A DNA stretch of 64,000 nucleotides. Origin: an uncultured virus (IMG/VR IMGVR_UViG_3300030330_002895) (taxonomy: Duplodnaviria > Heunggongvirae > Uroviricota > Caudoviricetes). The position numbers were made by a program, and so were the translations under genes. Under the pieces are notes generated by a model. The model had not been told where the DNA came from. It searched no databases and worked only from the letters and a program-made list of their open reading frames with translations. Numbering within the stretch: position 1 is the first letter of the stretch; every line of letters starts with the position of its first letter. This document shows, in pieces, positions 5,562-64,000 of the stretch. The DNA is taken from IMG/VR virus record IMGVR_UViG_3300030330_002895, positions 1 through 64,000 of that record. One strand, written 5' to 3'.

Positions 5562-5571
5562 AACTTAAAGT

Positions 5572-6501: not shown

Positions 6502-6586
6502 ATTTTTATTTTTTTCAGTGTTAATAATTTCATGGTATTCATCTATTGCATCGAAGGGTATACCATTTACCCCTTCATCCCAAACC

Positions 6587-7063
6587 CTACTCATTGTTTG
6601 GTAGGTTTTCGGTTGCTACTATAAGTTGTTCTTTCTGTACTTTAGTTATATTATCTCGTACAAGACCACAATCTAAAATTTCTCTAACAAGCCATAGCAT
6701 ATCATTTATCCTATCAAGCTGAGTAGTTTTTGCATATTCAACATATGTTTCTACTCTCTCGTATTTAGTTTTGGTTTTAGAATCATAAGTAACTCCTGTA
6801 CCTAAATAAACAGGTCTAAGATTTGTTTTCATAAAAGATGTTAAAACTTCATACAAAGACTCTCTACTTACAAGACAATCAACTTTTAAATTCTTTTTAT
6901 TTGATTTATCTATTATAAATGCTTTGCTGTTTTCTAAATCTTCAAGCTTGTAAGCTTCTTCTTTGATTTGTTTTTTGTTATACATAGGTATAACTTTATC
7001 ATTATTTAGATACTCGCCTAAAGCTTCTCTAATAATGTTATAGTTTAATTTATGTTTTGTCAT
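6587..7063 (-). CDS. hypothetical protein
   Basis: 158-aa ORF with a typical A/T-rich start context. Confidence 0.75.
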   Translation of the reverse strand: MTKHKLNYNIIREALGEYLNNDKVIPMYNKKQIKEEAYKLEDLENSKAFIIDKSNKKNLKVDCLVSRESLYEVLTSFMKTNLRPVYLGTGVTYDSKTKTKYERVETYVEYAKTTQLDRINDMLWLVREILDCGLVRDNITKVQKEQLIVATENLPNNE

Positions 7064-23803: not shown

Positions 23804-24463
23804 ATGAATGGACAAGTTGGAAAAAGAGTAAGCATAAAAAGAGTAGTAAGTAATGTTATAAGAAATTTAGACATAACAGATGCTTCTAGAAACTTTTACC
23901 ATTTTGTAGAATGGGCATTTGATGCAGAAAGAAAGATAGGCTCTTATAAAACATTTGTAAAAAAAACTGCAACTATTAATGTAGTAAACAAACAAGCGTC
24001 TATGCCTAATGATTTTTTAAGTTTAATAGATGTAAAAAAAGCAGGAGATGCTTCTAACTCTACTTATTTTTCACAAAGTTCTGCTACTTTTCCAGAAAAC
24101 ACAAGTAAATCAAATTCTTTTTACTTAACAGAGGATACTATAAATTTATCAAATAATGATTGCTCTTCTTTAGATATAGCTTATTATGCTATAGACACAG
24201 ATGATGAGGGGTTTCCAACTATAGCAGACGGACATGAAGACGCAGTTTCTGCTTATCTTATGTTTAAATATAAAGCAAGAGATTATTATAATGGAAAATT
24301 AGCTAGAAATATATATGTAGATTTACAAACTAATTGGCAAAGATTATGTGCGCAAGCACGAGGTAATGACAATATGCCTAGCCCTATAGAAATGAAAAAA
24401 GCGGCTTCTATATGGAACACATTGGTTCCTGTTAAAAGTTTAAATGGATTACTTAACGTATAA
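23804..24463 (+). CDS. tail tubular (ring) protein
   Basis: VEWAFDAERKIG, IAYYAIDTDDEGFPTIAD, WQRLCAQA motifs. Confidence 0.7.
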   Translation: MNGQVGKRVSIKRVVSNVIRNLDITDASRNFYHFVEWAFDAERKIGSYKTFVKKTATINVVNKQASMPNDFLSLIDVKKAGDASNSTYFSQSSATFPENTSKSNSFYLTEDTINLSNNDCSSLDIAYYAIDTDDEGFPTIADGHEDAVSAYLMFKYKARDYYNGKLARNIYVDLQTNWQRLCAQARGNDNMPSPIEMKKAASIWNTLVPVKSLNGLLNV

Positions 24464-27400: not shown

Positions 27401-30400
27401 GTGGTTATTCTATAGTAAGAGTAGAAAGAACTCCAGAAAACAGAACAATATCTACTTCAGGTGTTTTACAAAGAGCAGTTAAATATTGTGATAATGACCC
27501 AAATAGTGTTTGGAATGATAATTCTCAAGACGAGTCACAGGTTGGTGACTTAGAATGGAAAGGAGCAAACAGAGCTGGTATGGCTGGTAGATTTGGTAAT
27601 TATCATAATAGTATATTTACACCTACAATACAAGATTATTGTTCACATATATATGGGCACGCTGCTGTAAATTTTACTGCTACTTCTAGTACACAAGTAT
27701 ATACACCTGGGGCTTTTACAACTTTATTTGGCGATGACACACCTTTAATAGGGGGTAACAAACACTGGTCTCACTCCAATATATTTACTATGGATTCTCC
27801 TGACGCTATTATTAATAGTGATTTTAATTTAAATTTTAGCAGTGGAGATAGAATAAAAATAACAGAGCAAAGATATTGTATAAAACAATCACTTAAAAAT
27901 GGAGGATATACAGATAACAGATGGCCACACTTTTTTAATATGTATTTGTCTGATGGGTATTATGGTGGTTTAGCTGGTTCTAGTAGACCAGACATGTATA
28001 TGGGCCCACAATTTGTAAGTTTGTTTGCTTGTCAAATAGACCCTGAATTATTAAAAGGAGAAGATATATATTATTTTCAAGAAGAAACTACAACAGCAGA
28101 AGAAGAATTAACTGTTCAAAATTTTGGAGGTTGGAAACATAAGCTTTCTCCAGTTAATAAGTGGTCTACAGATTGGGAGTGTGATTTTAATACTTTTGAT
28201 GTTTTATGGAGAAGATTTACAGGTTATCAACCTAATGGTGGATATAGCGATGAGAATTTAGAGGATGCTTTAAATGAAAGTTTAACTGATGGTTGGGTTG
28301 ATACAGATGATGAACCAAGTATACACAATGATTTAGAAGGAGATGTTCATTTAGGTATATATACTAAATATTATTCTAAAAGAATAGGGGCTTACCCTAT
28401 GTATGGTATGGCTAGACCCGATTGGAATAAATATGATTATGGTCAAGTTGGTGAAGGTAGAAACTTTAACACCACAGGAGGTGGTGGCGCAGGAGATTCT
28501 GGAGGTTTAGGTTTTGGAATGAATACTAGAGATTGGAAGTTTGATATAGCTGAAAGATGGATGTTTCCTAATTTTACAGCTTTAGCAGCTTGGAAAGCTA
28601 CTGATATTAATCCTTATTCTAATGAAATTGATACTACCAACTCTAACACTAATATAAACTCAAGCTTGTCTTTAAGTGGAGATGAGCATTATCTATGGTA
28701 TGCAGGAGGACAAAGACAGTGGGACTTTTATGGCGACGACGAAGGTTATGAAAGTGGAGCAAGAGCCACTAATGTTATGCCTGATATTTTTGCTAATGCA
28801 GGGTTAGACGGAAGTACAAATGCTCCAGGAGAAAGGTTAGATACATGGTGGGGTTCTTCAGTTCCATCAGGAGACTTAAACCCGTATTGGAAAGAGTCAA
28901 GAATTTTTCACGCACAAATAGTAAATCCAGGGCAAGAAATTTCTGAAACAACTTTAGGCTCTGATAGGCCTTATAGAAATGCCACTATGTGGCACGACCC
29001 CCATAGACAAAATGTAATATTTTCTTTAAATTCTACATCTAAAAATATGAGAAACCACTCTCTGGGTGGCAATACAGGTGGCACAAGTGATAATATAAGT
29101 GAAGAAACTACTACATACTCAGAAAGTAGAGCAGATTTTTCTTTAGGTCACAAAACAATAGTTATGTCTTTACCGCATCATGCTATGCTACCTATAACAA
29201 GACATTGTTTACAAGCTAATAACTGGAGAGAAAGAGTTTATTATCAGTTTGGTGGTCCTAATATATTAGGATTTAAAAATAATGACGAAATGAGTATTGG
29301 TGATTGGCAAGACTTTACGGGTGGTTACTCAGGTTATAGATGGGCATGTGGGGCTGACCATGAACAGTTTTCTGAAATGGGACCAACAGGATTAGCTGGT
29401 TCTGGAGCTTCAGGTGCTACTCAATTTGGAAAAACGGGTCGTGGTAATATATGGAGTGTAGATTCTCCAGAGGTTACTATGGCCTCTATAGTAAAAAACC
29501 ACAACGCTGGAACATTATATGGGGGTAACACTAACTTAGCTTTTGCAAAAAATACATTTGTTTCTACAGGAAGTTTTAGACAAGTAAATCAAGTAGAAGC
29601 GTTTGATGGTTCAGGAAATAACGGATTGCCAGTATTTGGTGGTGATACTTTTATTGCTAATTTTAGTTTAAAAAAAGTTCACAATCCAGATACAGATTCA
29701 GAATACTCTGATAGAGGTGTATTAACAGCTTATACTTGTCCCGTAGAAACAGAAACTAATTTAGATTTAAGACATGGTTATTTCTTTGGTAGTGACACAC
29801 AAAATATAGCAAAACAAATACCAGATGATACTGGCGCTTATGCATATAATACATCATATGATGCAGAAAATAAAATCCAAGTATTTAGTCCAAAACCTTT
29901 TGGATTTGTAGAAATAGACCATTGGCCATCAACTGTTGCATTTTCTGACCCTAAAAACACAGGAGATGTATTAGATAACTATTCTGTATTTCCTGTAAAT
30001 CAATTAAAAGATTTAGACTACACCAAAGGTCCTATTAGACAAATGTTTAAATTGCAAAATAAATTGTTTGCTTTGCAAGACTCAGGAACTTGTCAACTAT
30101 CTGTCAATCCAAGAGTTATGATACCTTCAGGAGAAGGTGGAGCTATTCAAGCTGTAACAGGAACTGACAATGTAATAGAAAGATATGATTATTTAAGTGA
30201 ATCTTTGGGAACACAACATTTTCATGGTTTAGCCGTTACTGATAAAGCGGCATATTATTATGATGATAATGCATCTAAATTTTTACAATTAGGAGCAGGT
30301 AAAGGTGGTGGATATGGTATAACTTCTTTAGGGGATTCCCATTCTATGCAAACATTTTTTCAACTATATGCAAATGAAACTATAAATGATAGACCATTGA

Positions 30401-31404
30401 ATTCTCCAAATTTTAATTTAGAACCATCAAATGATGCTGAATTACCTTACACTTACACATTAACTGATTATAATTCTTTTAACCCAAATTATGGAGGGAT
30501 TAACATAGGTTATGACCCAGAATATGGAGAGGTTTTATTGTCAATATCTTGTGATAATCCATACACATTAGTATATAATGAAAATTTAGGAGTATTTAGT
30601 TCATTTATTTCAAAAAGACCATCTAACTATATTAATTTTAAAAACAGATTATATTGCACTTACGATACTTTTAATTCGTCAATGGAAACAGATTCTAATA
30701 CAAAATTGTTTTTATCTAATGGTTTTGTAAATGGAACAGTGGATGACGGTTCTTATAGATATTTAACTTTTGGAGAAATAGATTATTATATATTAGGGCA
30801 TGGAAATGATGAGGATTATAGTTATGACCAAGATAGTTATACAAATTATGTGTCTACAGAAAGCTATCCACAATTAGAAGCAAACCTTCAGAAATGGGGC
30901 ACAAGAAGTGACTTATACACTAAAGAGCCAATACAGATACATTTTGTTTTAAATGATGAATCTATGCAGCCAAAAATATTTGACAATATAGATATACATA
31001 TAGATGCTAATACAGAAGTGGGTTCTAATCATTTATATTTTCGTAAATTTACATTTTTAGGAAGTGCTAATAGAGCGGCTTATTCTGAATATGATGCAAG
31101 TGAATTTAGTTTAGAACAAATTTATTCTAATTCTGAATTTGGTTTTGCTGAAGACCCAGGGCGAAAAATGTGGTATAGTGTAAAAGATGGCACACACCAT
31201 GTGCCTCTTAGAACAACTGGAGCAGGTGCACAAATAAATACTGCTGAACCAGCTATAAGAGGAACTTATGCTATAGTAGCAGCCTCAATAGGTTGGGACA
31301 AGGGGGATAGATTTTTTGGAGTAGATGGTGGAGATAAAATTATGAAAAACGAAGGATTTAGTATATTATCATTAATTCCTTATTATAGATATTCAAGAAG
31401 ATAA
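24463..31404 (+). CDS. tail stabilisation/muzzle protein with large insertions (2313 aa)
   Basis: FGKGMMMD...YRYAKNIR, IKDNRLFVGN, GYRRGEIYRFGLLFYD, FGGDTFI, GPIRQM motifs of crAss tail stabilisation proteins. Confidence 0.8.
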   Translation: MRKPGKPNTFGKGMMMDMDPLLQPKESYRYAKNIRLNSYVGKNISVQPYDSDKLALSLGSGQITTFETNTISDIVNWQAVSDEIYTNWSQLTWQAFFDYITNASFGLDLEEFFTSGTLSDNYNLTGSPSSAYVMIGDYVSSGLYYEDVSQDTQLSNLQLLPAFTEGGYYINFYNLFLENNTTLPLTTVASGVEDSNADGVGLTFTVTLTLSDENTEVIDVEVPPFAEITDATQNPLYFESIIANQITLSDNDISATVNTSSGGNNLWAFSTTTEITVTSVNIVVNGDIAISTAIDNFAIENTWRNEWLAYDTVDSDYYADEGILWEFMTEEVGTYFSERINSYVNSVDGVNDTFAIENFQLLQQDTTTDASDLSDVVISKGMQILGSYAFSDYLVILGTWPEQENITGYKTDFVIKTSQQKDGTLTSAGQQGLYQLFFVGNLGFENKKKLKVVGAEENEHVRRIYFTDGDIPLRTMNVGANPSIYSQYTNDPGYFDLFVETKVSIPKVTGFVDGGNLESIGHSYAFRYKTLDGRLSRISPVSNPASLPVSGSAQPASFTKGGNPGVNTSKSITGVIENLDTRYPYVEMIHIPYIGGAPGVAQVFATIPVPVGQTTLSWTHTGTEIVREEIIALEFGADYVSWDTCKALEIKDNRLFVGNLKGVAESVPTDFTVVSYNSWNQHHSYESGNPDLYSDLLYSIAGISYNANGEDADYHSPQTEDYGKYTKPNGYDPYRYIQGPTETEGEQNGLYQSSLSAPEYWTAENTAPQPYSVRRGIFGAESKHFRTPLENGEFEGVRVTFRILGSEPDDVLPVELDSQDKLISTGSEIAARPPFYRVEKNQETGGYYANYANPMYNSNYVGYRRGEIYRFGLLFYDKKGSPMFVKRIGDVRMPEHSTEYIVPSFSGSSVNGFDMKWPYYYQTSRSNLDGGFVDWPSPTWDEENYIKPYSQHDKGEGQKACVLYPYFEVKLSSETCKKISGYSIVRVERTPENRTISTSGVLQRAVKYCDNDPNSVWNDNSQDESQVGDLEWKGANRAGMAGRFGNYHNSIFTPTIQDYCSHIYGHAAVNFTATSSTQVYTPGAFTTLFGDDTPLIGGNKHWSHSNIFTMDSPDAIINSDFNLNFSSGDRIKITEQRYCIKQSLKNGGYTDNRWPHFFNMYLSDGYYGGLAGSSRPDMYMGPQFVSLFACQIDPELLKGEDIYYFQEETTTAEEELTVQNFGGWKHKLSPVNKWSTDWECDFNTFDVLWRRFTGYQPNGGYSDENLEDALNESLTDGWVDTDDEPSIHNDLEGDVHLGIYTKYYSKRIGAYPMYGMARPDWNKYDYGQVGEGRNFNTTGGGGAGDSGGLGFGMNTRDWKFDIAERWMFPNFTALAAWKATDINPYSNEIDTTNSNTNINSSLSLSGDEHYLWYAGGQRQWDFYGDDEGYESGARATNVMPDIFANAGLDGSTNAPGERLDTWWGSSVPSGDLNPYWKESRIFHAQIVNPGQEISETTLGSDRPYRNATMWHDPHRQNVIFSLNSTSKNMRNHSLGGNTGGTSDNISEETTTYSESRADFSLGHKTIVMSLPHHAMLPITRHCLQANNWRERVYYQFGGPNILGFKNNDEMSIGDWQDFTGGYSGYRWACGADHEQFSEMGPTGLAGSGASGATQFGKTGRGNIWSVDSPEVTMASIVKNHNAGTLYGGNTNLAFAKNTFVSTGSFRQVNQVEAFDGSGNNGLPVFGGDTFIANFSLKKVHNPDTDSEYSDRGVLTAYTCPVETETNLDLRHGYFFGSDTQNIAKQIPDDTGAYAYNTSYDAENKIQVFSPKPFGFVEIDHWPSTVAFSDPKNTGDVLDNYSVFPVNQLKDLDYTKGPIRQMFKLQNKLFALQDSGTCQLSVNPRVMIPSGEGGAIQAVTGTDNVIERYDYLSESLGTQHFHGLAVTDKAAYYYDDNASKFLQLGAGKGGGYGITSLGDSHSMQTFFQLYANETINDRPLNSPNFNLEPSNDAELPYTYTLTDYNSFNPNYGGINIGYDPEYGEVLLSISCDNPYTLVYNENLGVFSSFISKRPSNYINFKNRLYCTYDTFNSSMETDSNTKLFLSNGFVNGTVDDGSYRYLTFGEIDYYILGHGNDEDYSYDQDSYTNYVSTESYPQLEANLQKWGTRSDLYTKEPIQIHFVLNDESMQPKIFDNIDIHIDANTEVGSNHLYFRKFTFLGSANRAAYSEYDASEFSLEQIYSNSEFGFAEDPGRKMWYSVKDGTHHVPLRTTGAGAQINTAEPAIRGTYAIVAASIGWDKGDRFFGVDGGDKIMKNEGFSILSLIPYYRYSRR

Positions 31405-50034: not shown

Positions 50035-50655
50035 ATGCCTATACATAAAACAAGTTTATACGATGCTTCGTTAATTTTAGCTCCTAACGGCACACTGGAC
50101 CTTAGGGGTGTTGCTGCTGTTGTGGGAATAGATGTTAATGGAGCGCATAATGCTGGAACAAAAACAGTTGTTGTAAACGGTACGGACGCAACAGGTTTTT
50201 CTGCTGGTGATAAAGTGATAAGTGGACTAACAGGTGAGGCTTTGGGTACTGTAGCATCTTCTGCAACTAATTCTGTTACATTTGTAAATGGAATAAAACA
50301 TTCACTAGTAGATGATGATACTTTAGAATTAGCTCCTAAGTTTGAAATAGTAGGTATTATGCCTTTAGGTTCTACTGCTACTGCTGGAGGTAATGAAAGT
50401 GATGTTGAAATTGATGTATTAATACCTTGTTCAACAGCTTATTTTGGAACACTTGCTCCCAATGGCGGCTCTTGGCCTGCTTTTGATGACCACGTAACAA
50501 GATTTGGTGCTGGAGCAGAAATAGGAGATACCCTTTCTCCTTCTTTAGACTTGCCTTCGGGAACATTGTTTGAAGGAAGATGGAAAAAAATATCTGTTAC
50601 TGGTAATGGTTCAGCTATTATATATTTAAAAGCAGCTACTGCTCAAACATTTTAA
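50035..50655 (+). CDS. putative tail-associated protein, paralog family D
   Basis: YFGT...GTLFEGRWKKISV...AIIYL; paralog of the ORF at 50659. Confidence 0.65.
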   Translation: MPIHKTSLYDASLILAPNGTLDLRGVAAVVGIDVNGAHNAGTKTVVVNGTDATGFSAGDKVISGLTGEALGTVASSATNSVTFVNGIKHSLVDDDTLELAPKFEIVGIMPLGSTATAGGNESDVEIDVLIPCSTAYFGTLAPNGGSWPAFDDHVTRFGAGAEIGDTLSPSLDLPSGTLFEGRWKKISVTGNGSAIIYLKAATAQTF

Positions 50656-50658
50656 TTT

Positions 50659-51390
50659 ATGAACATAGATGACCTATCCAAGTTTTCGCTGGGTCAATAT
50701 GGGTCGGTGACATTAGATTCTGCTGAACAATTATCTTTAATTGGTTCTAGCAAATATCTTATAGGAGCAATACATATATTAAGCAATAGAGAATCTTCAT
50801 CTACAGATAACTCATTTCAATATTTAGTGGCAAATGACATAAATCCTTTATATTGGGGGACACATTCTGGTGGCTCTATGGTTTTGCAATTTAATGGAGA
50901 AAATATAAATTCTACAGATGACACTATTCAAATTAACAATAGTTTAGATTGGAAGTTTATAAGACCAGGTCATACATGTAATTATTTTGCAAGAGGACAG
51001 TCAGATTCGTCATTAGGGTTAACATCTTGTGTAATAGATGGTTCTAACTTTCATCCAACTACAGCAAATAGGGTTTATACTGTTGTAGAAAAAAATGATT
51101 ACAATAGAACATTAAAATTAAAAGATAGTTCTGGTGCTATAGTAAATTTAACAACACAATCTCCAGATGTAGCAGGCTCAAAAAGAGCATTAGTTTTTCC
51201 AGCCATAACTGCACAAACTACAGCCTTAATAGAAGACTCTTTAGACGCTGATGATGCAAATCATGATGCTGGACCTTTTGTAGCAGGAGATAATATAGTA
51301 GAGGGCGTTATATTGTATGGTAGATGGAATTTTGTTAAATTAGGTGCTTATGTAAGAGCAGTTGCTTATTTAATTCCTAAAATTATATGA
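50659..51390 (+). CDS. putative tail-associated protein, paralog family D
   Basis: LGQYGS...YWGT...GVILYGRWNFVKL...AVAYL. Confidence 0.65.
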   Translation: MNIDDLSKFSLGQYGSVTLDSAEQLSLIGSSKYLIGAIHILSNRESSSTDNSFQYLVANDINPLYWGTHSGGSMVLQFNGENINSTDDTIQINNSLDWKFIRPGHTCNYFARGQSDSSLGLTSCVIDGSNFHPTTANRVYTVVEKNDYNRTLKLKDSSGAIVNLTTQSPDVAGSKRALVFPAITAQTTALIEDSLDADDANHDAGPFVAGDNIVEGVILYGRWNFVKLGAYVRAVAYLIPKII

Positions 51391-53612: not shown

Positions 53613-54362
53613 ATGAAGAAACTAATATCTATATTAATTACTATATCCTCTTTTGCTTTTGGTCAAGGTTACGACTTTCAACAGTTGTGCTTAGACTGTG
53701 CAGCTCAAAATGGATTTTATTGTGGGGACGACCCAGCTAATTGGACTCAGTATTCTCCTAATGGCTGTGTTCCTAATGGTCAAGGAAACTTGTTTTATCT
53801 TAATGACGGGTGGGACGATTGTGTTGATGGAGCTGATGAAGATAACGCAGAACCAACATCACCATTAGATTGTTTACCTCCTATTTTAGAAGAGTGTGAC
53901 ACTATATTTGTTGATATACCAATATACATATATGAAACAGAATTTATTTTTGATACTATTGTAGAAACAGAGTATATTACTAATATAGTAATTGACACAG
54001 TGCAAATTGAAACGTTTGTTCCTGAATATATATATGTTACAGACACGGTGTATGTTTATGAAGATGTGTTAGACACATTGTTTGTAGATGTTGTAGAGTA
54101 TGTGGATGTAATTGTTTATGACACCGTAGTAGAAACTGAATACGTGGAAATTTTTGTTATAGATACTGTTACTGAGTATATAGAAATAATAAACACAGAA
54201 TATATAGATTGCGATACTGGTTTGCCTTGTAACAGTTCGCTTGCAGAAATATTAGATAAATCAACATCTAATAATTTACTATATAATTTACAAGGGCAAG
54301 TAATAAGAAAACCAGAAGGTGTTTACATCGAAGGAGGTAGTATTAAATATAAAATAAATTAA
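53613..54362 (+). CDS. secreted Cys-rich protein: LDLa-like motif, DT[VI] repeats, T9SS-type C-terminal domain
   Basis: Signal peptide ending AFG-Q; NDGWDDCVDGADE; repeated DTI/DTV/DTL; LYNLQGQVI...GVYIEGG tail. Confidence 0.7.
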   Translation: MKKLISILITISSFAFGQGYDFQQLCLDCAAQNGFYCGDDPANWTQYSPNGCVPNGQGNLFYLNDGWDDCVDGADEDNAEPTSPLDCLPPILEECDTIFVDIPIYIYETEFIFDTIVETEYITNIVIDTVQIETFVPEYIYVTDTVYVYEDVLDTLFVDVVEYVDVIVYDTVVETEYVEIFVIDTVTEYIEIINTEYIDCDTGLPCNSSLAEILDKSTSNNLLYNLQGQVIRKPEGVYIEGGSIKYKIN

Positions 54363-54364
54363 TT

Positions 54365-54589
54365 ATGGCTTTTAAAGATATTATGGGCAAAATTGGTGGC
54401 GCTGTTAAAGGTGCTGCAGGTGCTGGTATGTTAGGACCAGTAGGAATGCTAGCAGGTAAACTTTTAGGTAAGAAAGGAATGCGAGTAAAAAAAGGAAAGA
54501 AAAAAATGATGGGCGGTGGAAAGATGAAATATAAGTATAAAAAAGGAGGCTCTGTAAAAAGAGATATGTTTACTCAGCAATACGACTAA
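54365..54589 (+). CDS. small basic Gly/Met/Lys-rich protein with GG...QYD tail
   Basis: Ends YKKGGSVKRDMFTQQYD. Confidence 0.75.
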   Translation: MAFKDIMGKIGGAVKGAAGAGMLGPVGMLAGKLLGKKGMRVKKGKKKMMGGGKMKYKYKKGGSVKRDMFTQQYD

Positions 54590-54951
54590 TGTATACTTAC
54601 AAAGCAGAGGTAGCAAGAGTTATTGACGGAGACACAATAGATGCTAATATAGATTTAGGGTTTGATGTAACCATAAAAAAAAGAATTAGATTAGCAGGCA
54701 TTGACACTCCAGAGTCTAGGACTAGAGACTTAGAAGAAAAAAAGCGTGGACTAGCGTCTAAAGATAGATTGGTAGAGCTTTTAGATAAAGGCAATTTAGT
54801 TGTAGAAAGTCAAAGCGTTGGCAAGTTTGGAAGAGTTTTGGGTGTATTACATGTATATCCTGATGATTTAGACCTGCCTATTAATGTTAATGACACCTTA
54901 GTAAAAGAGGGTTTTGCTGTTGAATACTGGGGTGGAAAGAAAAAGAAATGA
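54589..54951 (+). CDS. thermonuclease (SNase-like)
   Basis: RVIDGDT, RIRLAGIDTPE, GKFGRVLG motifs. Confidence 0.92.
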   Translation: MYTYKAEVARVIDGDTIDANIDLGFDVTIKKRIRLAGIDTPESRTRDLEEKKRGLASKDRLVELLDKGNLVVESQSVGKFGRVLGVLHVYPDDLDLPINVNDTLVKEGFAVEYWGGKKKK

Positions 54952-55163
54952 TGAATATATTTAAGGACGATAATAACTGGAACGAAAAATCTATAATTGG
55001 ATTTGTTGCCTTTGCTATTATGGTCTTAATTATGATAGCTGATTTAGTAACAGGGTGGGTGGGCAAAGACCTAGTTATTAATAAGTTTGTATATGACTCC
55101 TTTGTGTGGGTAGTTCTTGGATGTTTTGGAATTAGTGGAGTTGAAAAATTCGCAAAAAAATGA
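54948..55163 (+). CDS. small two-TM membrane protein (holin-like)
   Basis: Two hydrophobic helices and a GISGVEKF basic tail. Confidence 0.6.
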   Translation: MMNIFKDDNNWNEKSIIGFVAFAIMVLIMIADLVTGWVGKDLVINKFVYDSFVWVVLGCFGISGVEKFAKK

Positions 55164-55441
55164 AAGAAATATCAGAAGATTCTAAATTTGAAGTAAGCCT
55201 AAAATCATTAGGAGGCTTAGCAGTTTTAATTTTTGCTTTTGTAGGTATGTGGTTTACACTACAAGCCGACATAGCTGAGGCAAAAGAACTTCCAATCCCA
55301 CCTAAACCAGAAGTTACCAAAATGGAATTTGATATGAAAGACAAAATGATACGTGCAACTATTATGACAACACAAGAAGATGTGAAAGAAATTAAAGAAG
55401 ACATTAAGTATCTTAGAGACAAAATAGATGACATGCAATGA
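55160..55441 (+). CDS. membrane-anchored coiled-coil protein
   Basis: One TM segment (LGGLAVLIFAFVGMWF) followed by a heptad-rich tail. Confidence 0.65.
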   Translation: MKEISEDSKFEVSLKSLGGLAVLIFAFVGMWFTLQADIAEAKELPIPPKPEVTKMEFDMKDKMIRATIMTTQEDVKEIKEDIKYLRDKIDDMQ

Positions 55442-55827
55442 ATATAGCTAATCATATATTAATTTTATTGGGTGTTTTATTTTTTATAGTAGGTAGCGCT
55501 TTTGGACAGGACTTTGTAAGTTCTGACAACTTTAACAAAACAATAGCAAAAGATGTTGTTGTAGTGGAGTTTTGGGTAGAATGGAACGCCTCTAATCAAT
55601 TTGCAGAATTAAACAAATTAAAAGAGTGTGAAAAGTATAGGGTAGATATAGGCAAGTGCAATAAGATACAAAACAAATATAATGTATCTGCAATACCAAC
55701 TGTTTTAGTTTTTGAAAACGGAGAGGAAAGAGAAAGGTTTGGACCTAATATAATGTTTCAATTAGATGCTGACAAAAAAACAATACAACACTCTGTAGAT
55801 ACAATAATATTAAATAAATTTCAATAA
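55438..55827 (+). CDS. exported thioredoxin-fold protein lacking CxxC
   Basis: Signal peptide ending AFG-Q; VVVEFWVEWN, YNVSAIPTVLVFENGEERERF. Confidence 0.75.
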   Translation: MNIANHILILLGVLFFIVGSAFGQDFVSSDNFNKTIAKDVVVVEFWVEWNASNQFAELNKLKECEKYRVDIGKCNKIQNKYNVSAIPTVLVFENGEERERFGPNIMFQLDADKKTIQHSVDTIILNKFQ

Positions 55828-56318
55828 TGGCATTACAAGAGTTATTAGCATATTCAGCACAAAAAGTAACAATAAAAGCTTTAAGAGGTAATCATTTTCA
55901 ATTAGTGATTAATGTTAAAACAAGTAGTGGTGCTAATTATGATTTTACAAACTCTTCCACCGAAGTAGATAATGGTTATTTTCAAGTTATAACTCCTTCT
56001 GGTAATCAAATGCAAAATATATATGCTGCTTATCAAGGCGGTACTTTAGAAAATATTGCGCCTGAACCTATAACATTTGATACTGTTGTAGAAGATGGAA
56101 AAATAACAATTACGTCAACAAACAATAATGGTTTCTGGCCTGCCCCTGGTATATATAGATACAATATTTTTACACAAAAAGTTGACTCTACAGAAACTAA
56201 TGACCAATTAACTCACTGGTTGTTTGGCGACTTTATTGTTATTGATGACAACCCTTCAAGTAACCTAGGAGGTGTTCCTGCTGCTGAGCAAGGATTTTTT
56301 CCTATAATAGAAGGATAA
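55827..56318 (+). CDS. putative tail/fibre attachment domain protein, paralog family E
   Basis: IKALRGNHF...YDF...EDGKIT...GIYRY...WLFGDF; resembles BppU-like N-terminal domains. Confidence 0.6.
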   Translation: MALQELLAYSAQKVTIKALRGNHFQLVINVKTSSGANYDFTNSSTEVDNGYFQVITPSGNQMQNIYAAYQGGTLENIAPEPITFDTVVEDGKITITSTNNNGFWPAPGIYRYNIFTQKVDSTETNDQLTHWLFGDFIVIDDNPSSNLGGVPAAEQGFFPIIEG

Positions 56319-56329
56319 AATAAAAAATT

Positions 56330-59300
56330 ATGCCTGAAAATATATCTACATATTGGGCAAAAAACGTTAAAATAAAAACATTAAGGGGCAATAGATTTGA
56401 ATTTGTTTTAAATGTTAGAAATGAAGATGGCTCTGACTATTCTTTTCCAGAGGGCCATGTGGCGTTTTTTGCAGCTTTTAAAAACGTGTCTAACCCTGTG
56501 GGTACAATAATGCCCACATCTTCTGGCGCAGCTATACCCTTTAAAACTTTAGTTGAAGAAGGTAAAATTACAGTAAACACTTTAGGTGGAGAAGAGTCGT
56601 TTTATCCAATAGTTGGAACATATAGCTATATTTTGTTTACATATAATCCTAATGATGTTGGCGTTAACTTAGAAGATTTAATGGAAAACATCATTCCAAA
56701 TTGGCATTTAAGAGTTGGTTGGATGAGTGATGAATTAACTGATTTATGGACTAATCCTTATGAAACAGATTCTAATATTTTACAAAATGGTTATTACGAC
56801 GAATGGTTTCATGTTGTAGGAGACGAAGGACTTTATCCATGTTTTATACCAGAATGGAAACTTTTACAAGCAAATCAAGAGTCTGGTTCTAATTTATATT
56901 ATAGCCAGCCTTTAATAGATTTTCCATATATAAATAATGACTACCTAGATAATAATGATGTTTGGAGCAACAACAAGCTAACATATCAAAATGGAATGGA
57001 AGAGCTTGTTTTAAAAACTATTATACACAGAAAAAATATAGTTAAATGTATATTTGATGAAAGACAATATTTGTATAAATGGTCAGTGGTTCCTATACCC
57101 GTTAGATACAATTCTCAATGTTCAGTTACAAATATACCACCACCTGCTACAGAAATTTTTCCAAATGCTAGCTCTTGGACTAATATTGATGGCGATTCTT
57201 ATACTTTTCACACAGGCAATTATCCATTTAATTTTTCTCAATATGTAAATATAGACCCTGAAAACTCTGAAATTGGTACGGTGTTTAGTGCAGAAGAATT
57301 ATTTAACCTAAGTCAATATTTTGATATAGATACAGGACTAACAACTATAGATTTTGCAACAATAGATATGCCAGACACTGTTATTAATCTTTTGCCATTT
57401 GTTGATACTGTTGACGAAATGTTATCTGAAGACATATCAAGTCCAGGCTTTGGACTTAACAGCCAAGATTTTTCTTATACTGGATTTTCAACTATGAGTG
57501 CTGCTACGTCATCATTTATGTATGCAACGTTTAATTATTTTTATGAACAATCTTTAGAATTGTCTGCCAACTATGTTCCAGGAGACCTTTTGTATTACCC
57601 TATAAATGCAGAATTTGACAGTAATACAGTATTTTCTTTTCAAATGTATTTTTCAGGACTTAACCCAGAGCAAACATTTTTATCGTGGGGTATTTTTCCT
57701 TATGGTAATGGTCCTAGCGCTAATAATTTGGTGGCTACAAATTTAGTAGCTCCTGGTTATTTTGGTTTTCCTACTTTTGAAGAATATATAGAGTTTAATA
57801 GTATTGGAGGTTCTCCTCCAGGAAATTACACGCAAGGTTTAAATGACTGGAGAAGAATTAAGCCTGAAAAAGTGGGTTTACCGTACGCCCCAATAGAGTC
57901 TTTAGATGACTTAGACACTTTACTTTCTCCACCACCAATGGGGGTGTCAGACTATTTTACTGTAATGTTTGGAGGCGCTTCTTTAGAATATCCAGACGCT
58001 TTTCCTTGGTGGTCGTATTATCAAACTGGAGGCACTGGCAATATTAATGTTCCATATGTTTCTAATTATAGCGCTATTTTTGCAGAAGGTGCTGAAATAA
58101 CAGATGCATGGCTACCCTTTTATAGCCCACAATCTTTAGTTGATTGGAATGAAGACTATTTAATATTTCCTAAAACATCTTATTTTGTAGATATGTTTAA
58201 CACATATCCTGAGCTAGGTCATATTCCTACAGACGCTATAGGGATAGAGGAACCAACCAATGTTATGCTTGAACAGTTAGGAAATGAATTTCCAATAAGC
58301 CCAGAGCATCAAAATCTTCCTGTAAACACAAATACACCTGGTTGGAATTTAATTCCATATTTAGGTCTTGAAAGTACTTTATGGAACTATTTAAACTACA
58401 CTAATGAAGCTGATTTACCTGGATTTGTATTGTCGGGAGGTGGCGATGTCACATATTGGGGCGTGCCTATAGAAGATGCATATGAACAAACACCAACATA
58501 TAATGAATATATATTTGAATACGACGGAGTAGTGTATGATTTTTCTACTTGGAGTTTAGAGCCGTCTGTAGATGAAAATGGTTTTCCAATTTTAAACACA
58601 TTACAAGAGCAACAGGCTTGGTATGGAAACAATCAAATAAATGACCAGGGGGAACCAACTGGACTTATAGATGATAACCTTACAGTTTATACACCTTTTG
58701 CAAGCCCTGACTCATTTGGGTACTCTTTTCCTGGTGGTTATTATAATCCTGCTAATCAGGGTTTGCCCCCTATACCTAATTCTATTGTAGATTTTGTTTC
58801 TAATACACCTGGATTAGACGGAACAATTTATGACTTATGGTGGAACATGTCTAACAGTTTAATAAATTCTATTACCGAAGTTAGCTCCGTTTTTTCTAAT
58901 CAAATATATTTACAAGAACAATCGCCAGTAACTGCTTTTGATATAGGCATAAATAATGGACTTGATTTTCAAACTTCTAGTTACGGTTATAATAATGTAA
59001 CTGAAGATTTTTTTAACCAAAGCTATGCGCCACAATTTGATGTGTATATATCTGGCTATATATTAAATGCAATGGCAGCACATGTTAGATTTTATCAAGA
59101 AGGAACGAATATAGGGACTGGTCAAATACACGCATTTTGCAGAATTACTCGTCCCGACGGAACAGGTTTTCCAGTAAAACCAGAATTTAATACTATATAT
59201 GGCGAATATGAAATTAATGAATTTAATCAAATACAATCACAAGCAGGCAGCTCTTCATATGTTACTCCTTATGGCCTTGGAATGTTTACTGAAGTTTATA

Positions 59301-61771
59301 ATTTAAATGATGAAGACACTGAAACAACAATTATACCTATAGCTAGAGCTCATCAATTTAATTTTAAACCTGCTTTTGATGGGTCTGTGCTTACAGACGC
59401 CACCCCTGTAGCTGGACAACCTGGAGCTTATGAATTTCTTTTTAGGTTTGTTACCCCATTTGGAGGTGCTAATCAAGTAAATTCAAACACATTAGATAGT
59501 GTTATGGACACGGGTTGGGATTATATAGATTGGGATAATGCTGGTGATAGAAAATTTGTGGTTGAATATAGGTTTGCAAATTTAAAAACAATGTCTCCAC
59601 CTTTTGTTCCTGAAATAAAAAATTGGATTTTTTTAAACGCAAGTAAAAGGGTTTCTATTGTTAACTCTATGCAACAAAGTGTATTAAAATTTACAGGCTA
59701 TGAGCCTTTAATAGGGAGAACTAATCCTGGTAATATTAATAAAAACTATTGGACTATGGGTACTTCTGTTGTTGTAAATGGTAATTTTCCAGAAGTTCCA
59801 AACCCTGACAATTCTGGAATTTTTTCTAACGACGCACTTTATAGAATAGAGCACGTACCTCCAGAAGGTAGTATAATTAAATTTTTTTTAGAAGATATTG
59901 GAGATGAATTGGGTGAAGGCTACACAAATGTTGCAGAAAATTCAAGTTGGGATTATTATGGATATGGAGGGTCACTTGAAAATGAATTACCTATTGGTAC
60001 TAATCAAGGTGGGCAACCTAGCGATATATATGATACATATGATTACTTTAATCCTTATTTTAATATTGAGATTAAAAGTACGTGGCAACATACGAATGGT
60101 CGATTTGGTATAGATATAAATCGTTTAACAGAAGTGTTGTGGGACGGTGCTCTTGGTGCTGCAATGGGTGCTCCAACGGGGGGTAATTACAGCGCTGCAT
60201 TGTGGGGCGTAGAAATTAATCCAGAACATTATCCAATATATCAAATAGACCAGCTACCTAATGAAGGAGAATCTCTTTTTAAAGTTTACAATGCGTTGGG
60301 TGATGGTTTTGGTACTGAATTACCTCCAATTCTTTTTGATATGTATTATTTAAATGAATCAACTGGAGAAACAGGTATTGTAGAAATACGTAATGCAAGT
60401 TTGTATATGAGCATTCCTATCGCAAATAATGGATTGTCTTCTCTTTATAATGACAATAGCGGCCCTGTAAATGGTACTGGTGGAAGTTCTGGTTTTAATA
60501 TAGAAACACCACTTAATTATCAAAATTGGAATGGAGTAAATGCTTTAGACGACACTCCTTATATTGAACAAGTAGCTAATCAACAAAATATGTTATCTAG
60601 TGCGTGGTTAATTCCAAGGTCAAGAATTTTAAATACTAAGCGAATATTTTGGCATGGGGCTACCTCACAGAATACGGAAGAAAATGAAATAATTACTTCA
60701 TATTATGGAATGACATATAGTGAAATAAATTCTAATTGGCAGGGTCTTGCAGGTTATTTATCTTTAAGCCCCATAGACAATGAATTTGAGACTAGAGGAG
60801 GCTCTAACAATAGTAGGGACATAACTGCTATATTGCCGCAAAACCCAGAGTGGCATGGCAATCCAATGAAATTTTGGTTTGAAAGCAGAGAGTTTTACAA
60901 GCCAAGAATTATAGGGGGACCTCCTCCAGAGCTTGGTGGAACAAACCCGTATTGGCAAGCAGAAGAAATATGTTTAAGAGCGGGTGGAGTTTTTATAAAT
61001 AAGATTAGTGGAGGGCATGTAGAAATTAATGCACAAAATTGTTCATATACTGATGTTTTTTGGACTCCAGAAATAATGGCTGAATGGCCAACAGACCCAG
61101 AGTCAGGACTTTTTATTCCCGCAGAACACCCTAATGGAAGTGGTCAATTAATATATGGAAAAGTTTATGCTTATTGGGTTCCTCCTGGAAGAGGTATGGC
61201 TCCTCCAAGAATAACTTTTTTAAGCAAAAGTATTAGAAGGGTAAACTATACAGAATTTTTAGGAACTGATGCGCAAAGTCAGCCTTCTAGGGTTGTAGAA
61301 AGAAAAGGTGAATTGAGAGTGTCAGGAACAGCCATGACTATGGATTTGATGAAACTTACAATAAATGAACCTCCTGAATATAATTTGTTTGAATACACGG
61401 TAAAAATAACTAAGGCTGATGACCCAGAATTTATATATGATACTTTTGATATAGACGCATCTGTGCCCTTTCCAACTGATTTTGAAAATTATGATTGGTC
61501 ACAACCCACTACTGTCACAAATCAAACTACAATATTTTTAGGACAAATGGGCATACCTGATGGTCAAGAATTGCAATTTTATATAAAACCAAAAGAAAGT
61601 TACAGGCAGTTTGATACATCTCAAGAATCCTACATAAGATTAGCTGGGACATACTTTTCAACTACATGGGGAAATAATTCGTATCTTAGTGAAGACGTGT
61701 TAACTCCTGTAAAAGCAAATTATTGGTTATATGGAGATTTTGTAGTAAATAAAAATAACGAAAACGAGTAA
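56330..61771 (+). CDS. giant acidic tail fibre/spike-like protein (1813 aa), family E domain with a huge insertion
   Basis: The first ~107 aa and the C-terminal NYWLYGDFVV align to the 163-aa neighbour. Confidence 0.65.
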   Translation: MPENISTYWAKNVKIKTLRGNRFEFVLNVRNEDGSDYSFPEGHVAFFAAFKNVSNPVGTIMPTSSGAAIPFKTLVEEGKITVNTLGGEESFYPIVGTYSYILFTYNPNDVGVNLEDLMENIIPNWHLRVGWMSDELTDLWTNPYETDSNILQNGYYDEWFHVVGDEGLYPCFIPEWKLLQANQESGSNLYYSQPLIDFPYINNDYLDNNDVWSNNKLTYQNGMEELVLKTIIHRKNIVKCIFDERQYLYKWSVVPIPVRYNSQCSVTNIPPPATEIFPNASSWTNIDGDSYTFHTGNYPFNFSQYVNIDPENSEIGTVFSAEELFNLSQYFDIDTGLTTIDFATIDMPDTVINLLPFVDTVDEMLSEDISSPGFGLNSQDFSYTGFSTMSAATSSFMYATFNYFYEQSLELSANYVPGDLLYYPINAEFDSNTVFSFQMYFSGLNPEQTFLSWGIFPYGNGPSANNLVATNLVAPGYFGFPTFEEYIEFNSIGGSPPGNYTQGLNDWRRIKPEKVGLPYAPIESLDDLDTLLSPPPMGVSDYFTVMFGGASLEYPDAFPWWSYYQTGGTGNINVPYVSNYSAIFAEGAEITDAWLPFYSPQSLVDWNEDYLIFPKTSYFVDMFNTYPELGHIPTDAIGIEEPTNVMLEQLGNEFPISPEHQNLPVNTNTPGWNLIPYLGLESTLWNYLNYTNEADLPGFVLSGGGDVTYWGVPIEDAYEQTPTYNEYIFEYDGVVYDFSTWSLEPSVDENGFPILNTLQEQQAWYGNNQINDQGEPTGLIDDNLTVYTPFASPDSFGYSFPGGYYNPANQGLPPIPNSIVDFVSNTPGLDGTIYDLWWNMSNSLINSITEVSSVFSNQIYLQEQSPVTAFDIGINNGLDFQTSSYGYNNVTEDFFNQSYAPQFDVYISGYILNAMAAHVRFYQEGTNIGTGQIHAFCRITRPDGTGFPVKPEFNTIYGEYEINEFNQIQSQAGSSSYVTPYGLGMFTEVYNLNDEDTETTIIPIARAHQFNFKPAFDGSVLTDATPVAGQPGAYEFLFRFVTPFGGANQVNSNTLDSVMDTGWDYIDWDNAGDRKFVVEYRFANLKTMSPPFVPEIKNWIFLNASKRVSIVNSMQQSVLKFTGYEPLIGRTNPGNINKNYWTMGTSVVVNGNFPEVPNPDNSGIFSNDALYRIEHVPPEGSIIKFFLEDIGDELGEGYTNVAENSSWDYYGYGGSLENELPIGTNQGGQPSDIYDTYDYFNPYFNIEIKSTWQHTNGRFGIDINRLTEVLWDGALGAAMGAPTGGNYSAALWGVEINPEHYPIYQIDQLPNEGESLFKVYNALGDGFGTELPPILFDMYYLNESTGETGIVEIRNASLYMSIPIANNGLSSLYNDNSGPVNGTGGSSGFNIETPLNYQNWNGVNALDDTPYIEQVANQQNMLSSAWLIPRSRILNTKRIFWHGATSQNTEENEIITSYYGMTYSEINSNWQGLAGYLSLSPIDNEFETRGGSNNSRDITAILPQNPEWHGNPMKFWFESREFYKPRIIGGPPPELGGTNPYWQAEEICLRAGGVFINKISGGHVEINAQNCSYTDVFWTPEIMAEWPTDPESGLFIPAEHPNGSGQLIYGKVYAYWVPPGRGMAPPRITFLSKSIRRVNYTEFLGTDAQSQPSRVVERKGELRVSGTAMTMDLMKLTINEPPEYNLFEYTVKITKADDPEFIYDTFDIDASVPFPTDFENYDWSQPTTVTNQTTIFLGQMGIPDGQELQFYIKPKESYRQFDTSQESYIRLAGTYFSTTWGNNSYLSEDVLTPVKANYWLYGDFVVNKNNENE

Positions 61772-61772
61772 A

Positions 61773-62063
61773 ATGAAATATTTAGTTGACAAAACATCTG
61801 GATTAAATATAGTTCATAATAATTTAAGTGGATTGCCAGAAATTACTATTAACTTAAGTTTGTCTAAAGCAAAAATAGTTTTAAAAAATAGCGCACATAT
61901 AAGTGGCGTTTACGATTTAAACACTGGTAAAAAAAATCCAGGAATGTCATATTGTGAAATACAAGAAAAAAAACCAACCATTACAGATGATTGGATTTCT
62001 ATTTCATCAACTACAAAAAATCAATTATCCCTTAACTTAAAAACTAAATTAAAACAATTATGA
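61773..62063 (+). CDS. hypothetical protein
   Basis: 96-aa ORF tightly coupled to its neighbours. Confidence 0.6.
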   Translation: MKYLVDKTSGLNIVHNNLSGLPEITINLSLSKAKIVLKNSAHISGVYDLNTGKKNPGMSYCEIQEKKPTITDDWISISSTTKNQLSLNLKTKLKQL

Positions 62064-62548
62064 AATTAGAAGTAATACGAGTGTCTAATAGCAATGACTC
62101 TACAAGTGGTTTATTATATATATCTCATGGAGATTTTGACAAAGAGTTTTTGTGTTACACTTTAGAAGATGAATATAGAAAAGAAAAAAAATATGGAGAA
62201 ACTAGAATCCCTGAAGGGACTTATAAGCTTGGCCTTAGAACAGTTGGTGGCTATAATGAAAAATATAAAAAACGTTTTAAAGACATTCATATTGGCATGC
62301 TTCACGTTCTTGATGTGCCTAATTTTGAGTATATACTTATACATTGTGGTAATACTGACGAGCATACAGCTGGCTGCCTCCTTGTGGGAGACACCCAAGA
62401 AAACAACAAAATCAAGAAGGACGGTTTTATAGGTAAGTCATCACAAGCATATAAAAGAATATATCCTGAAATAGCTAAAGCTATAAAAATAGGTCAGGAA
62501 GTAACAATCACATATAAAGATATAACTAACGGTAATTGTGTATGTTAA
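62060..62548 (+). CDS. DUF5675-family protein, putative endolysin
   Basis: CYTLED, TRIPEGTY, ILIHCGN...TAGCLLVG; adjacent to a holin. Confidence 0.78.
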   Translation: MKLEVIRVSNSNDSTSGLLYISHGDFDKEFLCYTLEDEYRKEKKYGETRIPEGTYKLGLRTVGGYNEKYKKRFKDIHIGMLHVLDVPNFEYILIHCGNTDEHTAGCLLVGDTQENNKIKKDGFIGKSSQAYKRIYPEIAKAIKIGQEVTITYKDITNGNCVC

Positions 62549-62928
62549 AAGGTATAGTAAAAAACCTGATAGGTAATGCAGGTGAAATATTAGATGAGGT
62601 AATAACCACAGACGAAGAAAGGTTAGATGCTAAAAGAAAGCTTAAAGAGCTGATACTCAGTCATCAAGCTCAAATGGAGCAAAATATAACTGACAGGTGG
62701 AAAGCTGACATGAACAGTGATTCTTGGCTTTCAAAAAACGTTAGACCATTAATGCTTATATTTGTAATGGTATGTACCATGCTTTTAATATTTATAGACG
62801 CTGGATTTCTTGAGTTTCAAGTGGAAGAAAAGTGGACAGATTTATTAACAATGGTACTAATAACAATCGTGGGTTCTTATTTTGGAGGACGTTCGTTAGA
62901 AAAGGTTAGAAATGGCAAAGCTAAATAG
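62542..62928 (+). CDS. holin (3TM/GTA-holin-like)
   Basis: RWKADMNSDSWLSKNVRP, two hydrophobic helices, YFGGRSLEK. Confidence 0.78.
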   Translation: MLKGIVKNLIGNAGEILDEVITTDEERLDAKRKLKELILSHQAQMEQNITDRWKADMNSDSWLSKNVRPLMLIFVMVCTMLLIFIDAGFLEFQVEEKWTDLLTMVLITIVGSYFGGRSLEKVRNGKAK

Positions 62929-63037
62929 TTTTATATACAGAAGTAATGGGGGTAAAAAACGAAAAGGCGTGCATAGCAAAAATGCTAGCAAGTCACAAAA
63001 TAGTTACAAAAAACCCTATAGGGGACAAGGAAGATAA
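62912..63037 (+). CDS. small basic protein ending YRGQGR (41 aa)
   Basis: MAKLNSFIYRSNGGKKRKGVHSKNASKSQNSYKKPYRGQGR; this C-terminus recurs in aquatic phage small proteins. Not in the ORF track. Confidence 0.7.
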   Translation: MAKLNSFIYRSNGGKKRKGVHSKNASKSQNSYKKPYRGQGR

Positions 63038-63040
63038 ATT

Positions 63041-63370
63041 ATGGCAAAAACACCAGCATGGCAAAGAAAAGAGGGTAAAAACCCTAGTGGTGGCTTAAAT
63101 AAAAAAGGAGTTGCTTCTTATAGAAGAGCAAACCCTGGCTCTAAACTTAAAACAGCTGTAACCACTAAGCCTTCTAAATTAAAAAAAGGAAGTAAAGCTG
63201 CTAAAAGACGTAAATCTTTTTGTGCTAGAATGAAAGGTATGAAAAAAAGACTTACTAGCGCAAAAACAGCAAGAGACCCAAATTCAAGAATAAATAAATC
63301 TCTTCGTAAATGGAATTGTAATACAGGTTGTAGAGTTCCTATGAGAAAAGCTGGAGAACAATACGATTAG
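63041..63370 (+). CDS. small basic protein (DUF6321-like) with QYD tail
   Basis: AWQRKEGKNPSGGLN...RRKSFCARM...SLRKWNC core, then NTGCRVPMRKAGEQYD. Confidence 0.75.
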   Translation: MAKTPAWQRKEGKNPSGGLNKKGVASYRRANPGSKLKTAVTTKPSKLKKGSKAAKRRKSFCARMKGMKKRLTSAKTARDPNSRINKSLRKWNCNTGCRVPMRKAGEQYD

Positions 63371-63372
63371 TT

Positions 63373-63564
63373 ATGGCAAAGAAAGATGCATGTTATTATA
63401 AAGTAAAACGTAGATATAAGGTTTGGCCTTCTGCATATGCAAGTGGTGCATTGGCTAAATGTAGAAAAAAAGGTGCTAAGAATTGGGGAACTGGTGGTAA
63501 AAAGAAAAAGAAAATGGCGCATGGTGGTAAAATTTGTTGTTTAATGAAGTATCAAAAAGATTAA
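63373..63564 (+). CDS. small basic protein with GG...QKD tail
   Basis: DACYYKVKRRYKVWPSAYASGAL core, ends MAHGGKICCLMKYQKD. Confidence 0.75.
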   Translation: MAKKDACYYKVKRRYKVWPSAYASGALAKCRKKGAKNWGTGGKKKKKMAHGGKICCLMKYQKD

Positions 63565-63833
63565 TGGCTGTACGTAAAACAAAAAAAGGTTTAGCTCTTA
63601 AACGATGGTTTAAAGAAGATTGGAGAACTCCGTCAGGCAAAAAAGATTATAGTGGTGGTGAAAGCACATTTCGTCCTACAAAACGTGTATCAAAGAAAAC
63701 GCCCTCTACATGGTCAGAGCTTACATCTGCAGAAAAGGCTGCGGCAAAAAAAGAAAAAAGAAAAAAGGGTAGGGTTGGTCGATATAAAAAGAAAAGAAAA
63801 AAAGAGCAAGGAGGTTTAATACAATACGATTAA
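63564..63833 (+). CDS. small basic protein (DUF5872-like) with GG...QYD tail
   Basis: LKRWFKEDW...RPTKRVSKKTP core, ends KEQGGLIQYD; start at the TAATG overlap. Confidence 0.75.
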   Translation: MAVRKTKKGLALKRWFKEDWRTPSGKKDYSGGESTFRPTKRVSKKTPSTWSELTSAEKAAAKKEKRKKGRVGRYKKKRKKEQGGLIQYD

Positions 63834-63834
63834 T

Positions 63835-64000
63835 ATGGCAAGAAATTCATTAGCTGGTAAAAGAACGGGTAAATCTAAAACTGCAAAATATTATGCTAAA
63901 AATCCTAAAGCTAGGGCAAAAAAGAAAAAGTATGATACAAATTACCACAAATCTTCATCAAGAAAAAAATACCGCGCAAAGCTGAACAAGTTTAATAAAA
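63835..64000 (+). CDS. small basic protein (runs off the window)
   Basis: MARNSLAGKRTGKSKTAKYYAKNPKARAKK..., open to the window end. Confidence 0.65.
   Translation, partial: MARNSLAGKRTGKSKTAKYYAKNPKARAKKKKYDTNYHKSSSRKKYRAKLNKFNK

Follow-up and report, generated by a model that had tools for sequence, protein, structure and literature searches.

The N-terminal domain of BppU (PF10651) and protein p132 of phage T5 (LtfC, PF23926; PHROG 3304) are small structural modules of the immunoglobulin (Ig) superfamily that anchor fibres (PMC10038345). Natural domain inserts have a median size of ~120 amino acids (aa) among 174,872 proteins (PMC12328240), and analogous, non-homologous fibres are expected within the Crassvirales (PMC10136315). 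Here, we describe two adjacent genes, hereafter the small and the big gene, in DNA of an uncultured virus (IMG/VR record IMGVR_UViG_3300030330_002895). The window, i.e., the whole stretch analyzed, covers positions 1 to 64,000 of a contig of 68,469 bp from a crAss-like phage, and the runs holding it carry the label marine metagenome. The small gene encodes what is probably an intact Ig-like domain. In the product of the big gene, and in its homologues, a host domain of ~120 aa appears to be intact around an insert of 852-1693 aa, and the adjacent uninserted paralog provides a built-in control.

All eight motifs on which the original prediction was founded were recovered in place. In the big open reading frame (ORF), IKTLRGNRF starts at aa 15, EEGKIT at aa 76, GTYSYILFT at aa 96 and NYWLYGDFVV at aa 1797 (nucleotide 61718), and in the small ORF GIYRYNIFT starts at aa 108 and HWLFGDFIV at aa 130, with 13 aa in between. 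In BLASTP, the two proteins are 32% identical over aa 3-113 (E 7e-16), and a second match covers aa 1798-1810 (E 0.019). Thus, the last loop, of 13 aa in the small protein, measures 1693 aa in the big one, where the strand YWLYGDFVV follows at aa 1798, in line with the ~1690 aa noted earlier. Taken from this pair alone, the match of the closing strand is weak; the evidence from the family is strong. The insert had also been described as acidic, rich in aromatic residues, Pro and Asn, and poor in Lys and Arg. The latter features stand (Lys and Arg, 4.1%; Phe, Trp and Tyr, 14.8%; Pro, 7.3%; Asn, 8.7%), but the content of Asp and Glu (12.3%) is ordinary for this genome (range 10-18%), and the scarcity of basic residues, to which alone the insert owes its acidity, is shared with the small protein, which is equally poor in Lys and Arg (4.3%) and rich in Asn. 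A third paralog was not found in the 68,469-bp genome.

The family comparison comprised 13 apparently complete homologues of the big protein and 31 small relatives. The best-matching contigs that hold the stretch and locus L017 are possibly the window's own source and were left out of independent counts. Also left out were fragments without a C-terminus (P0039, P0040, P0042, P0044, and P0068), sequences without an N-terminus (P0064, the L021 and L022 ORFs, and five pieces of the P0046/P0065 cluster), four proteins of 103-134 aa ending in unrelated tails (P0045, P0048, P0053, and P0070) and, from the count of 13, four nearly identical proteins of 1353 aa in the P0046 cluster. Three long matches in the family search (P0054, P0057, and P0059) were judged spurious from their sequences.

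In 12 of the 13 big proteins, a closing strand with the consensus YW[LM][YFH]G[DNK]F is located at the C-terminal end, 4-15 aa before the stop codon. These proteins vary in length (971, 1187, 1210, 1223, 1263, 1300, 1353, 1417, 1699, 1799, 1810, and 1813 aa), and the difference in insert size holds up among them: their loops span 852-1693 aa vs. 7-26 aa in the 31 small proteins. When a position-specific scoring matrix (PSSM) for the last strand was built from the small proteins alone, the C-terminal strand was its top match in all 11 full-length big proteins tested, with scores of 15.5-36.1 bits and a shuffle maximum of at most 9.9 (30 shuffles per protein). The same terminal motif is present in the twelfth closing protein, P0065 (971 aa). 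P0044 was considered as a second non-closing exception but rejected, as it corresponds to a truncated form of P0065, in which the closing strand is present. For two strands that come earlier in the domain, B and F (lettered after the general Ig topology), the best PSSM matches lay at the N-terminus in all 13 proteins scanned, and no second copy of these strands was detected near the C-terminus, where scores were at or below shuffle level in every protein. Within the closing strand, the Trp, Gly and Phe residues are invariant in all 12 proteins, and the variable positions are occupied by residues also used in the small family (Tyr, Phe, or His before the Gly, and Asp or Lys after it). These shared substitutions suggest that the strand sits in the same packing environment in big and small proteins.

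Profile comparisons with the small family gave a similar picture. In hhalign, aa 1-110 of the big protein match with a probability of 99.7 (E 7e-27), and the C-terminal end with a probability of 95-96, driven by the strand. No match to the last strand was obtained within aa 108-246 (probability 0.1), and no copy of the small domain within aa 1655-1765 (probability 0.3); because of these values, neither a local replacement strand nor a convincing second copy of the domain is recognized. We consider it highly probable that the big protein is a split domain, whether it is closed in cis or in trans.

The insert had been presented as one passenger. It is giant and variable indeed, but it consists of conserved arms flanking a variable core with an exchange site, rather than a single unit (Table 1). 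Distant members are significantly similar only over approximately aa 1-243 and over the C-terminal 70-130 aa. The ascending segment is characterized by the motifs LRVGW, YYxEW, YC, and TYxxGM...KNIVxC, and the descending segment by G.EL..IKP..YR.F...GYIRL......W.N.SY; together, they may represent the two halves of a nested stalk. The payload between them contains weak shared motifs near aa 903-915, 1077-1091, 1338-1348, and 1683-1698. The selection pattern follows this anatomy. Relative to the gene in locus L001, which is 93% identical, no nonsynonymous changes are found in aa 1-107 and aa 1744-1813. The ratio of nonsynonymous to synonymous substitution rates (dN/dS) is 0.07 for the two ends together (4 vs. 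14 changes) and 0.65 for the middle (201 vs. 81), a difference with a Fisher P of 4.5e-5, and it reaches 0.91 in aa 901-1650. In nine of ten neighboring genes, dN/dS is at most 0.23, and the tenth value is based on five changes. A contrast between ends and middle was also obtained with L002 (0.07 vs. 0.36) and L019 (0.14 vs. 0.43). Since these values stay below 1, positive selection is at most suggested.

The payload also holds an exchangeable inner cassette. P0065 can be aligned collinearly with P0023 over 1-696 and again over 742-970; these parts are separated by 45 aa in P0065 and by 320 unrelated aa in P0023. The 45-aa stretch is a dockerin-like pair (NF041540, below the cut-off at E 3e-4). 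The sequence of P0024 changes over near this point, too, and these breaks mark an inner exchange site. Internal repeats among the beta-rich segments of the insert, suspected by eye, were rejected: hhalign probabilities did not exceed 15.6, which is not significant, and PSSM scans remained at shuffle level, with scattered p-values of ~0.02-0.05 among 45 tests, one of which was the true N-terminal block of P0046. A recognized carbohydrate-binding module was not found in the insert in Pfam, PDB or atlas by sequence searches, which distant folds could escape.

The history of the pair can be read from a midpoint-rooted tree of 50 rows, built on the N-terminal strands only. All 16 rows of the split type form one clade (support 100/100) on a long branch, nested inside a clade of neighboring small genes (98/93). 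The order of the small gene, the big gene and a 96-aa ORF is kept in seven distinct loci, the window included, and in loci L006 and L011 the small gene is present but the dispensable big gene is missing. The tree, the gene order and the gene content of L006 and L011 point to one tandem duplication, followed by one insertion. Hence, the homologues, the tree and the selection pattern lend good support to the proposal that a tandem duplication was combined with a giant insertion into the last loop.

The small ORF probably encodes an Ig-like beta-sandwich that is distantly related to BppU_N and LtfC (p132). Distant small relatives match BppU_N below threshold (E 0.003-0.008), and P0058 and P0061 score 16-18 bits against the BppU_N/LtfC profile, which has a cut-off of 23.1. 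PHROG 3304, "L-shaped tail fiber protein assembly," is matched by two of the 31 members (E 0.002) and PHROG 1084 by seven, and LtfC is found in 31% of the members of a look-alike cluster in the atlas. Furthermore, two relatives have matches among small genes of Streptomyces phages that are located in capsid-to-adaptor blocks, and one of these genes encodes a 127-aa protein annotated as "tail fiber." No match to the small ORF was found by tblastn in 50,697 phage records, and an atlas search with aa 1640-1813 of the big protein gave no usable match. Because of these links, and of the role of p132 and BppU-N in anchoring fibres, an Ig-like virion anchor is the best guess for the small domain. Docking on the virion is suggested by weak, indirect homology to BppU_N and p132 and by gene position.

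The comparisons show the paralogy, the single origin and position of the split, the mirrored conservation, the variation in insert size, the inner exchange site and the dispensability of the big gene, and from them we infer the fold, the closure within the chain, the virion location and the binding role of the big protein as follows. A small, putatively Ig-like structural module was duplicated in tandem, and the loop before the last beta-strand of the second copy took up foreign sequence once, which then grew and exchanged content. The chain would exit the module after aa ~107 and run outward via the conserved segment 108-243, beyond which the variable payload of 600-1500 aa is carried. It would return via the conserved segment 1744-1796 and lay its last strand into the module, so that both ends are located at the base and the two arms form the stalk. 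The rebuilt module might dock on the particle at the site of the small paralog, with which it possibly forms a mixed ring, and the payload would project outward as an accessory part that binds host surfaces. We assign a probability of roughly 0.55 to closure in cis of an anchor that displays its insert on the virion. With odds a little short of even, the big protein would represent an undescribed class of phage appendages, in which a virion anchor of ~120 aa closes around a conserved stalk with two arms and a payload that evolves fast, is exchangeable and measures up to 1,500 aa, beside an empty anchor. The particle could then mix empty and loaded subunits and change its host-binding cargo by recombination at the inner site, leaving the termini untouched.

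Several observations weigh against this reading and lend some credit to others. The 12 closing proteins are not as many independent cases, as they fall into only about six lineages. P0024 (1317 aa), with a single member on one 4145-bp contig, shares the N-terminal part but lacks the closing strand: its identity to P0023 is 83% as far as aa 721, after which Cys-rich GC-x-D repeats and a Dockerin_1 domain (aa 722-1317) replace the whole C-terminal half. No genomic locus was found for P0024, which may be chimeric or have arisen by natural recombination. It could also be completed in trans, and sequence is equally compatible with closure in trans and in cis. The terminal strand might complete the anchor of a neighboring subunit by strand swapping, which would chain the big proteins into a ring or a dimer; in the dodecameric collar of T5 p132, the C-terminus is involved in p132-p132 contacts (PMC10038345). 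However, the mirrored conservation of segments 108-243 and 1744-1796 fits a chain that folds back, and closure in cis would be the default when a split arises by insertion into a short hairpin loop. Strand swapping is considered unlikely. Of about the same low probability, or slightly higher, is a protein of this same architecture that stays outside the virion and acts in or on the infected cell or after release at lysis, e.g., by binding surfaces of hosts or competitors. The two genes are surrounded by accessory, secreted and lysis genes; the ring and muzzle genes are located ~25 kb upstream of them, and genes for a lysin-like DUF5675 protein and a holin follow shortly after. Several of their neighbors have hydrophobic leaders, no match to crAss structural families was found, and the big gene is missing in L006 and L011. 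Counting against the preferred reading as a whole, no window protein of the pair scores above cut-off in any Pfam, PHROG, or NCBIfam family or matches the sequence of a solved structure, and the link to BppU and p132 runs via relatives that are 22-28% identical to the small ORF. Against a non-virion role, neither protein of the pair has a leader or a transmembrane stretch, and distant relatives of the small domain occur in the Streptomyces phage blocks and have links to p132/BppU_N. As to the middle of the protein, dN/dS remains below 1 throughout, and relaxed constraint explains its divergence as well as host-driven selection does.

Less probable still is that the C-terminal 50-130 aa constitute a decayed second small domain, or its last three strands, which keeps its own strand, whilst the N-terminal module is closed by HLRVGWM (aa 125-131) or remains open. 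The C-terminal hhalign match extends weakly over 48 columns and so takes in the final three strands of the small family, and the C-terminus of the L012 fragment matches positions 13-140 of the small profile (E 2e-7). In addition, GTY recurs at aa 1773 in five of nine aligned lineages, not counting the ATGY/GTY variants of P0065; it is found in the big protein, P0022, P0023 and P0065, but is absent from P0046, P0050, P0063, L005, and L020. The lack of strands B and F near the C-terminus and the hhalign values for the two insert segments argue against a decayed copy, and HLRVGWM ranks outside the top three last-strand scores in every protein. Finally, a large insert at one conserved site could betray a selfish or removable element, such as an intein or an intron, or a join made in assembly, but this is very improbable. 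The intein signature (Cys or Ser at the start, His-Asn at the end with Cys, Ser or Thr after it) is absent from the junctions of all 12 proteins, profile searches gave no match to a Hint domain, and there are no Rfam matches in 54000-64000. Repeats are short and at chance level, the GC content at third codon positions of the insert equals that of the rest of the genome, and divergent homologues retain a single open frame. Contigs of runs X1 and X2 are identical to the gene, with one 4,750-bp piece spanning 56335-61084, and variants in runs X4 and X11 carry indels with a net length of 15 and 6 bases. An anchor split by its insert and closed within its own chain remains the preferred reading.

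Table 1. Location of the two paralogs, the parts of the big protein and other genes in the window.
Feature	Position	Strand	Evidence or remark
Small intact paralog, 163 aa, last loop 13 aa	55827..56318	+	ORF and family searches
Big split paralog, 1813 aa, single open frame	56330..61771	+	
Putative anchor domain, all strands except the last, aa 1-107	56330..56650	+	hhalign probability 99.7; vs. L001, 0 nonsynonymous and 7 synonymous changes
Conserved ascending segment, aa 108-243	56651..57058	+	Common to all split homologues; dN/dS 0.21 vs. L001
Variable payload, aa 244-1743	57059..61558	+	No family match; dN/dS 0.65
Conserved descending segment, aa 1744-1796	61559..61717	+	Alignment of split homologues
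Closing strand NYWLYGDFVV, aa 1797-1808	61718..61753	+	PSSM, hhalign, strand alignment
96-aa ORF, no known family	61773..62063	+	Downstream of small and big genes in every locus reaching that far (tblastn, gene order)
Terminase	13317		
Portal	15164		
Crassvirus capsid	18572		
Ring proteins	22673 and 23804		
Muzzle	24463-31404		

The phage of the window is crAss-like (Crassvirales-like): genes for the capsid, portal, terminase, ring and muzzle proteins of the crAss type are all present. The capsid protein matches the crassvirus family PF23898 (E 1e-31), the portal and TerL were matched as well, and further matches are to PF24228, PF25702, and PF25731; the identity of the capsid protein to the listed gut crassviruses is 26-27%, and the assignment therefore stops short of a family rank. 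Three separate stretches of the muzzle protein (2313 aa) match the crAss_MUZ model (1224 positions), so this protein is likely to contain large insertions as well. The small and big genes are located on the same strand in a later accessory block, directly before the 96-aa ORF and the DUF5675 and holin genes. The 96-aa ORF, a candidate partner of the anchor domain, is also present in L006, which is without the big gene; a look-alike in L011 is weaker and was seen by eye only.

Other features of the surroundings are recorded here. Between 52532 and 55827, four ORFs (52532, 53613, 55160, and 55438) have hydrophobic N-termini, and all four are kept in L001, L002, L005, L006, and L011. The thioredoxin-like ORF 55438 has W-x-x-W in place of the expected CxxC. 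The C-terminal stretch of ORF 53613 resembles a Bacteroidetes secretion-signal domain, for which family searches gave no match. Small, very Lys/Arg-rich ORFs, the sequence and order of which are kept across related loci, occupy 63041-64000, and similar ones are found at 49787 and 54365. Look-alike genes for 128-243-aa proteins are arranged in an array (window, 50035-51390; L005, 2892-4849; L006, 3529-4892; L011, 4518-5632). They end in a G..[IL]..GRW..V motif and, as judged by eye, differ in copy number and length between relatives, the 128-aa form in L011 being without a middle part. On the minus strand, an Amidoligase_2 gene adjoins a gene for a class-II glutamine amidotransferase (4317-6594). 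Promoter and terminator counts equaled those of shuffles, none of the runs holding the stretch is listed as RNA, and no relatives were found in prokaryote genomes.

If closure is true, folding studies gain an extreme natural example in the big protein: its first domain cannot finish folding before the last residues, and with them the last strand, are made. It would likewise offer a ready scaffold for large cargo tethered at both ends. The locus may also be regarded as a candidate for host recognition in an uncultured marine crAss-like lineage. No description of this split family was found in a search of an incomplete collection of the literature.

Known members of the BppU/p132 group are stand-alone or intact at the N-terminus with the passenger after it, as in the lactococcal neck passage structure (PMC9692632), whereas the passenger of the big protein lies inside the domain. 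A binding module of ~310 aa is inserted in loop 177-487 of a structural beta-sandwich in evolved Dit proteins of siphophages (PMC9692632). Both the host domain and the phage type are different there, however, and the insert described here is 852-1693 aa and occurs beside an uninserted paralog; no match of the window proteins to the Dit family was found, and the phage has ring and muzzle genes. In the pneumococcal tip pilin RrgA (RrgA/GBS104), two Ig-like domains are composed of N- and C-terminal halves, with a binding domain between them at the tip (PMC7893114). From their sequences, an anchor of non-contiguous N- and C-terminal parts is predicted for the big proteins, and the nested pattern proposed for them would have its nearest architectural counterpart in RrgA. 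However, RrgA is bacterial, secreted and sortase-anchored, with a von Willebrand factor A (vWA) domain; no homology was found, and the big protein has neither a hydrophobic leader nor a match to vWA or pilin families. In Ig topology, the loop in the big protein presumably corresponds to complementarity-determining region 3. In cow stalk-and-knob antibodies, the loop before the last Ig strand forms a two-stranded stalk with a variable binding knob (PMC7232318), but these unrelated proteins are diversified somatically, and their loop measures 40-71 aa vs. about 1000-1700 aa here. The Crassvirales fibres (gp21, gp29, and gp22 of crAss001, and BACON proteins) are, likewise, lineage-restricted and fast-evolving surface appendages, but those of crAss001 dock by their first 26-58 residues only (PMC10172136, PMC10136315), and no sequence matches between the window proteins and the crAss001 fibre or hub proteins were found in PDB, Pfam, and PHROGs searches. 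Thus, the big protein resembles evolved Dit, RrgA and, loosely, cow antibodies, and belongs to none of them. As insertion into a structural beta-sandwich is a principle already known, the novelty is capped, and it lies in an insert that is far larger, occurs family-wide and is accompanied by an uninserted neighbor.

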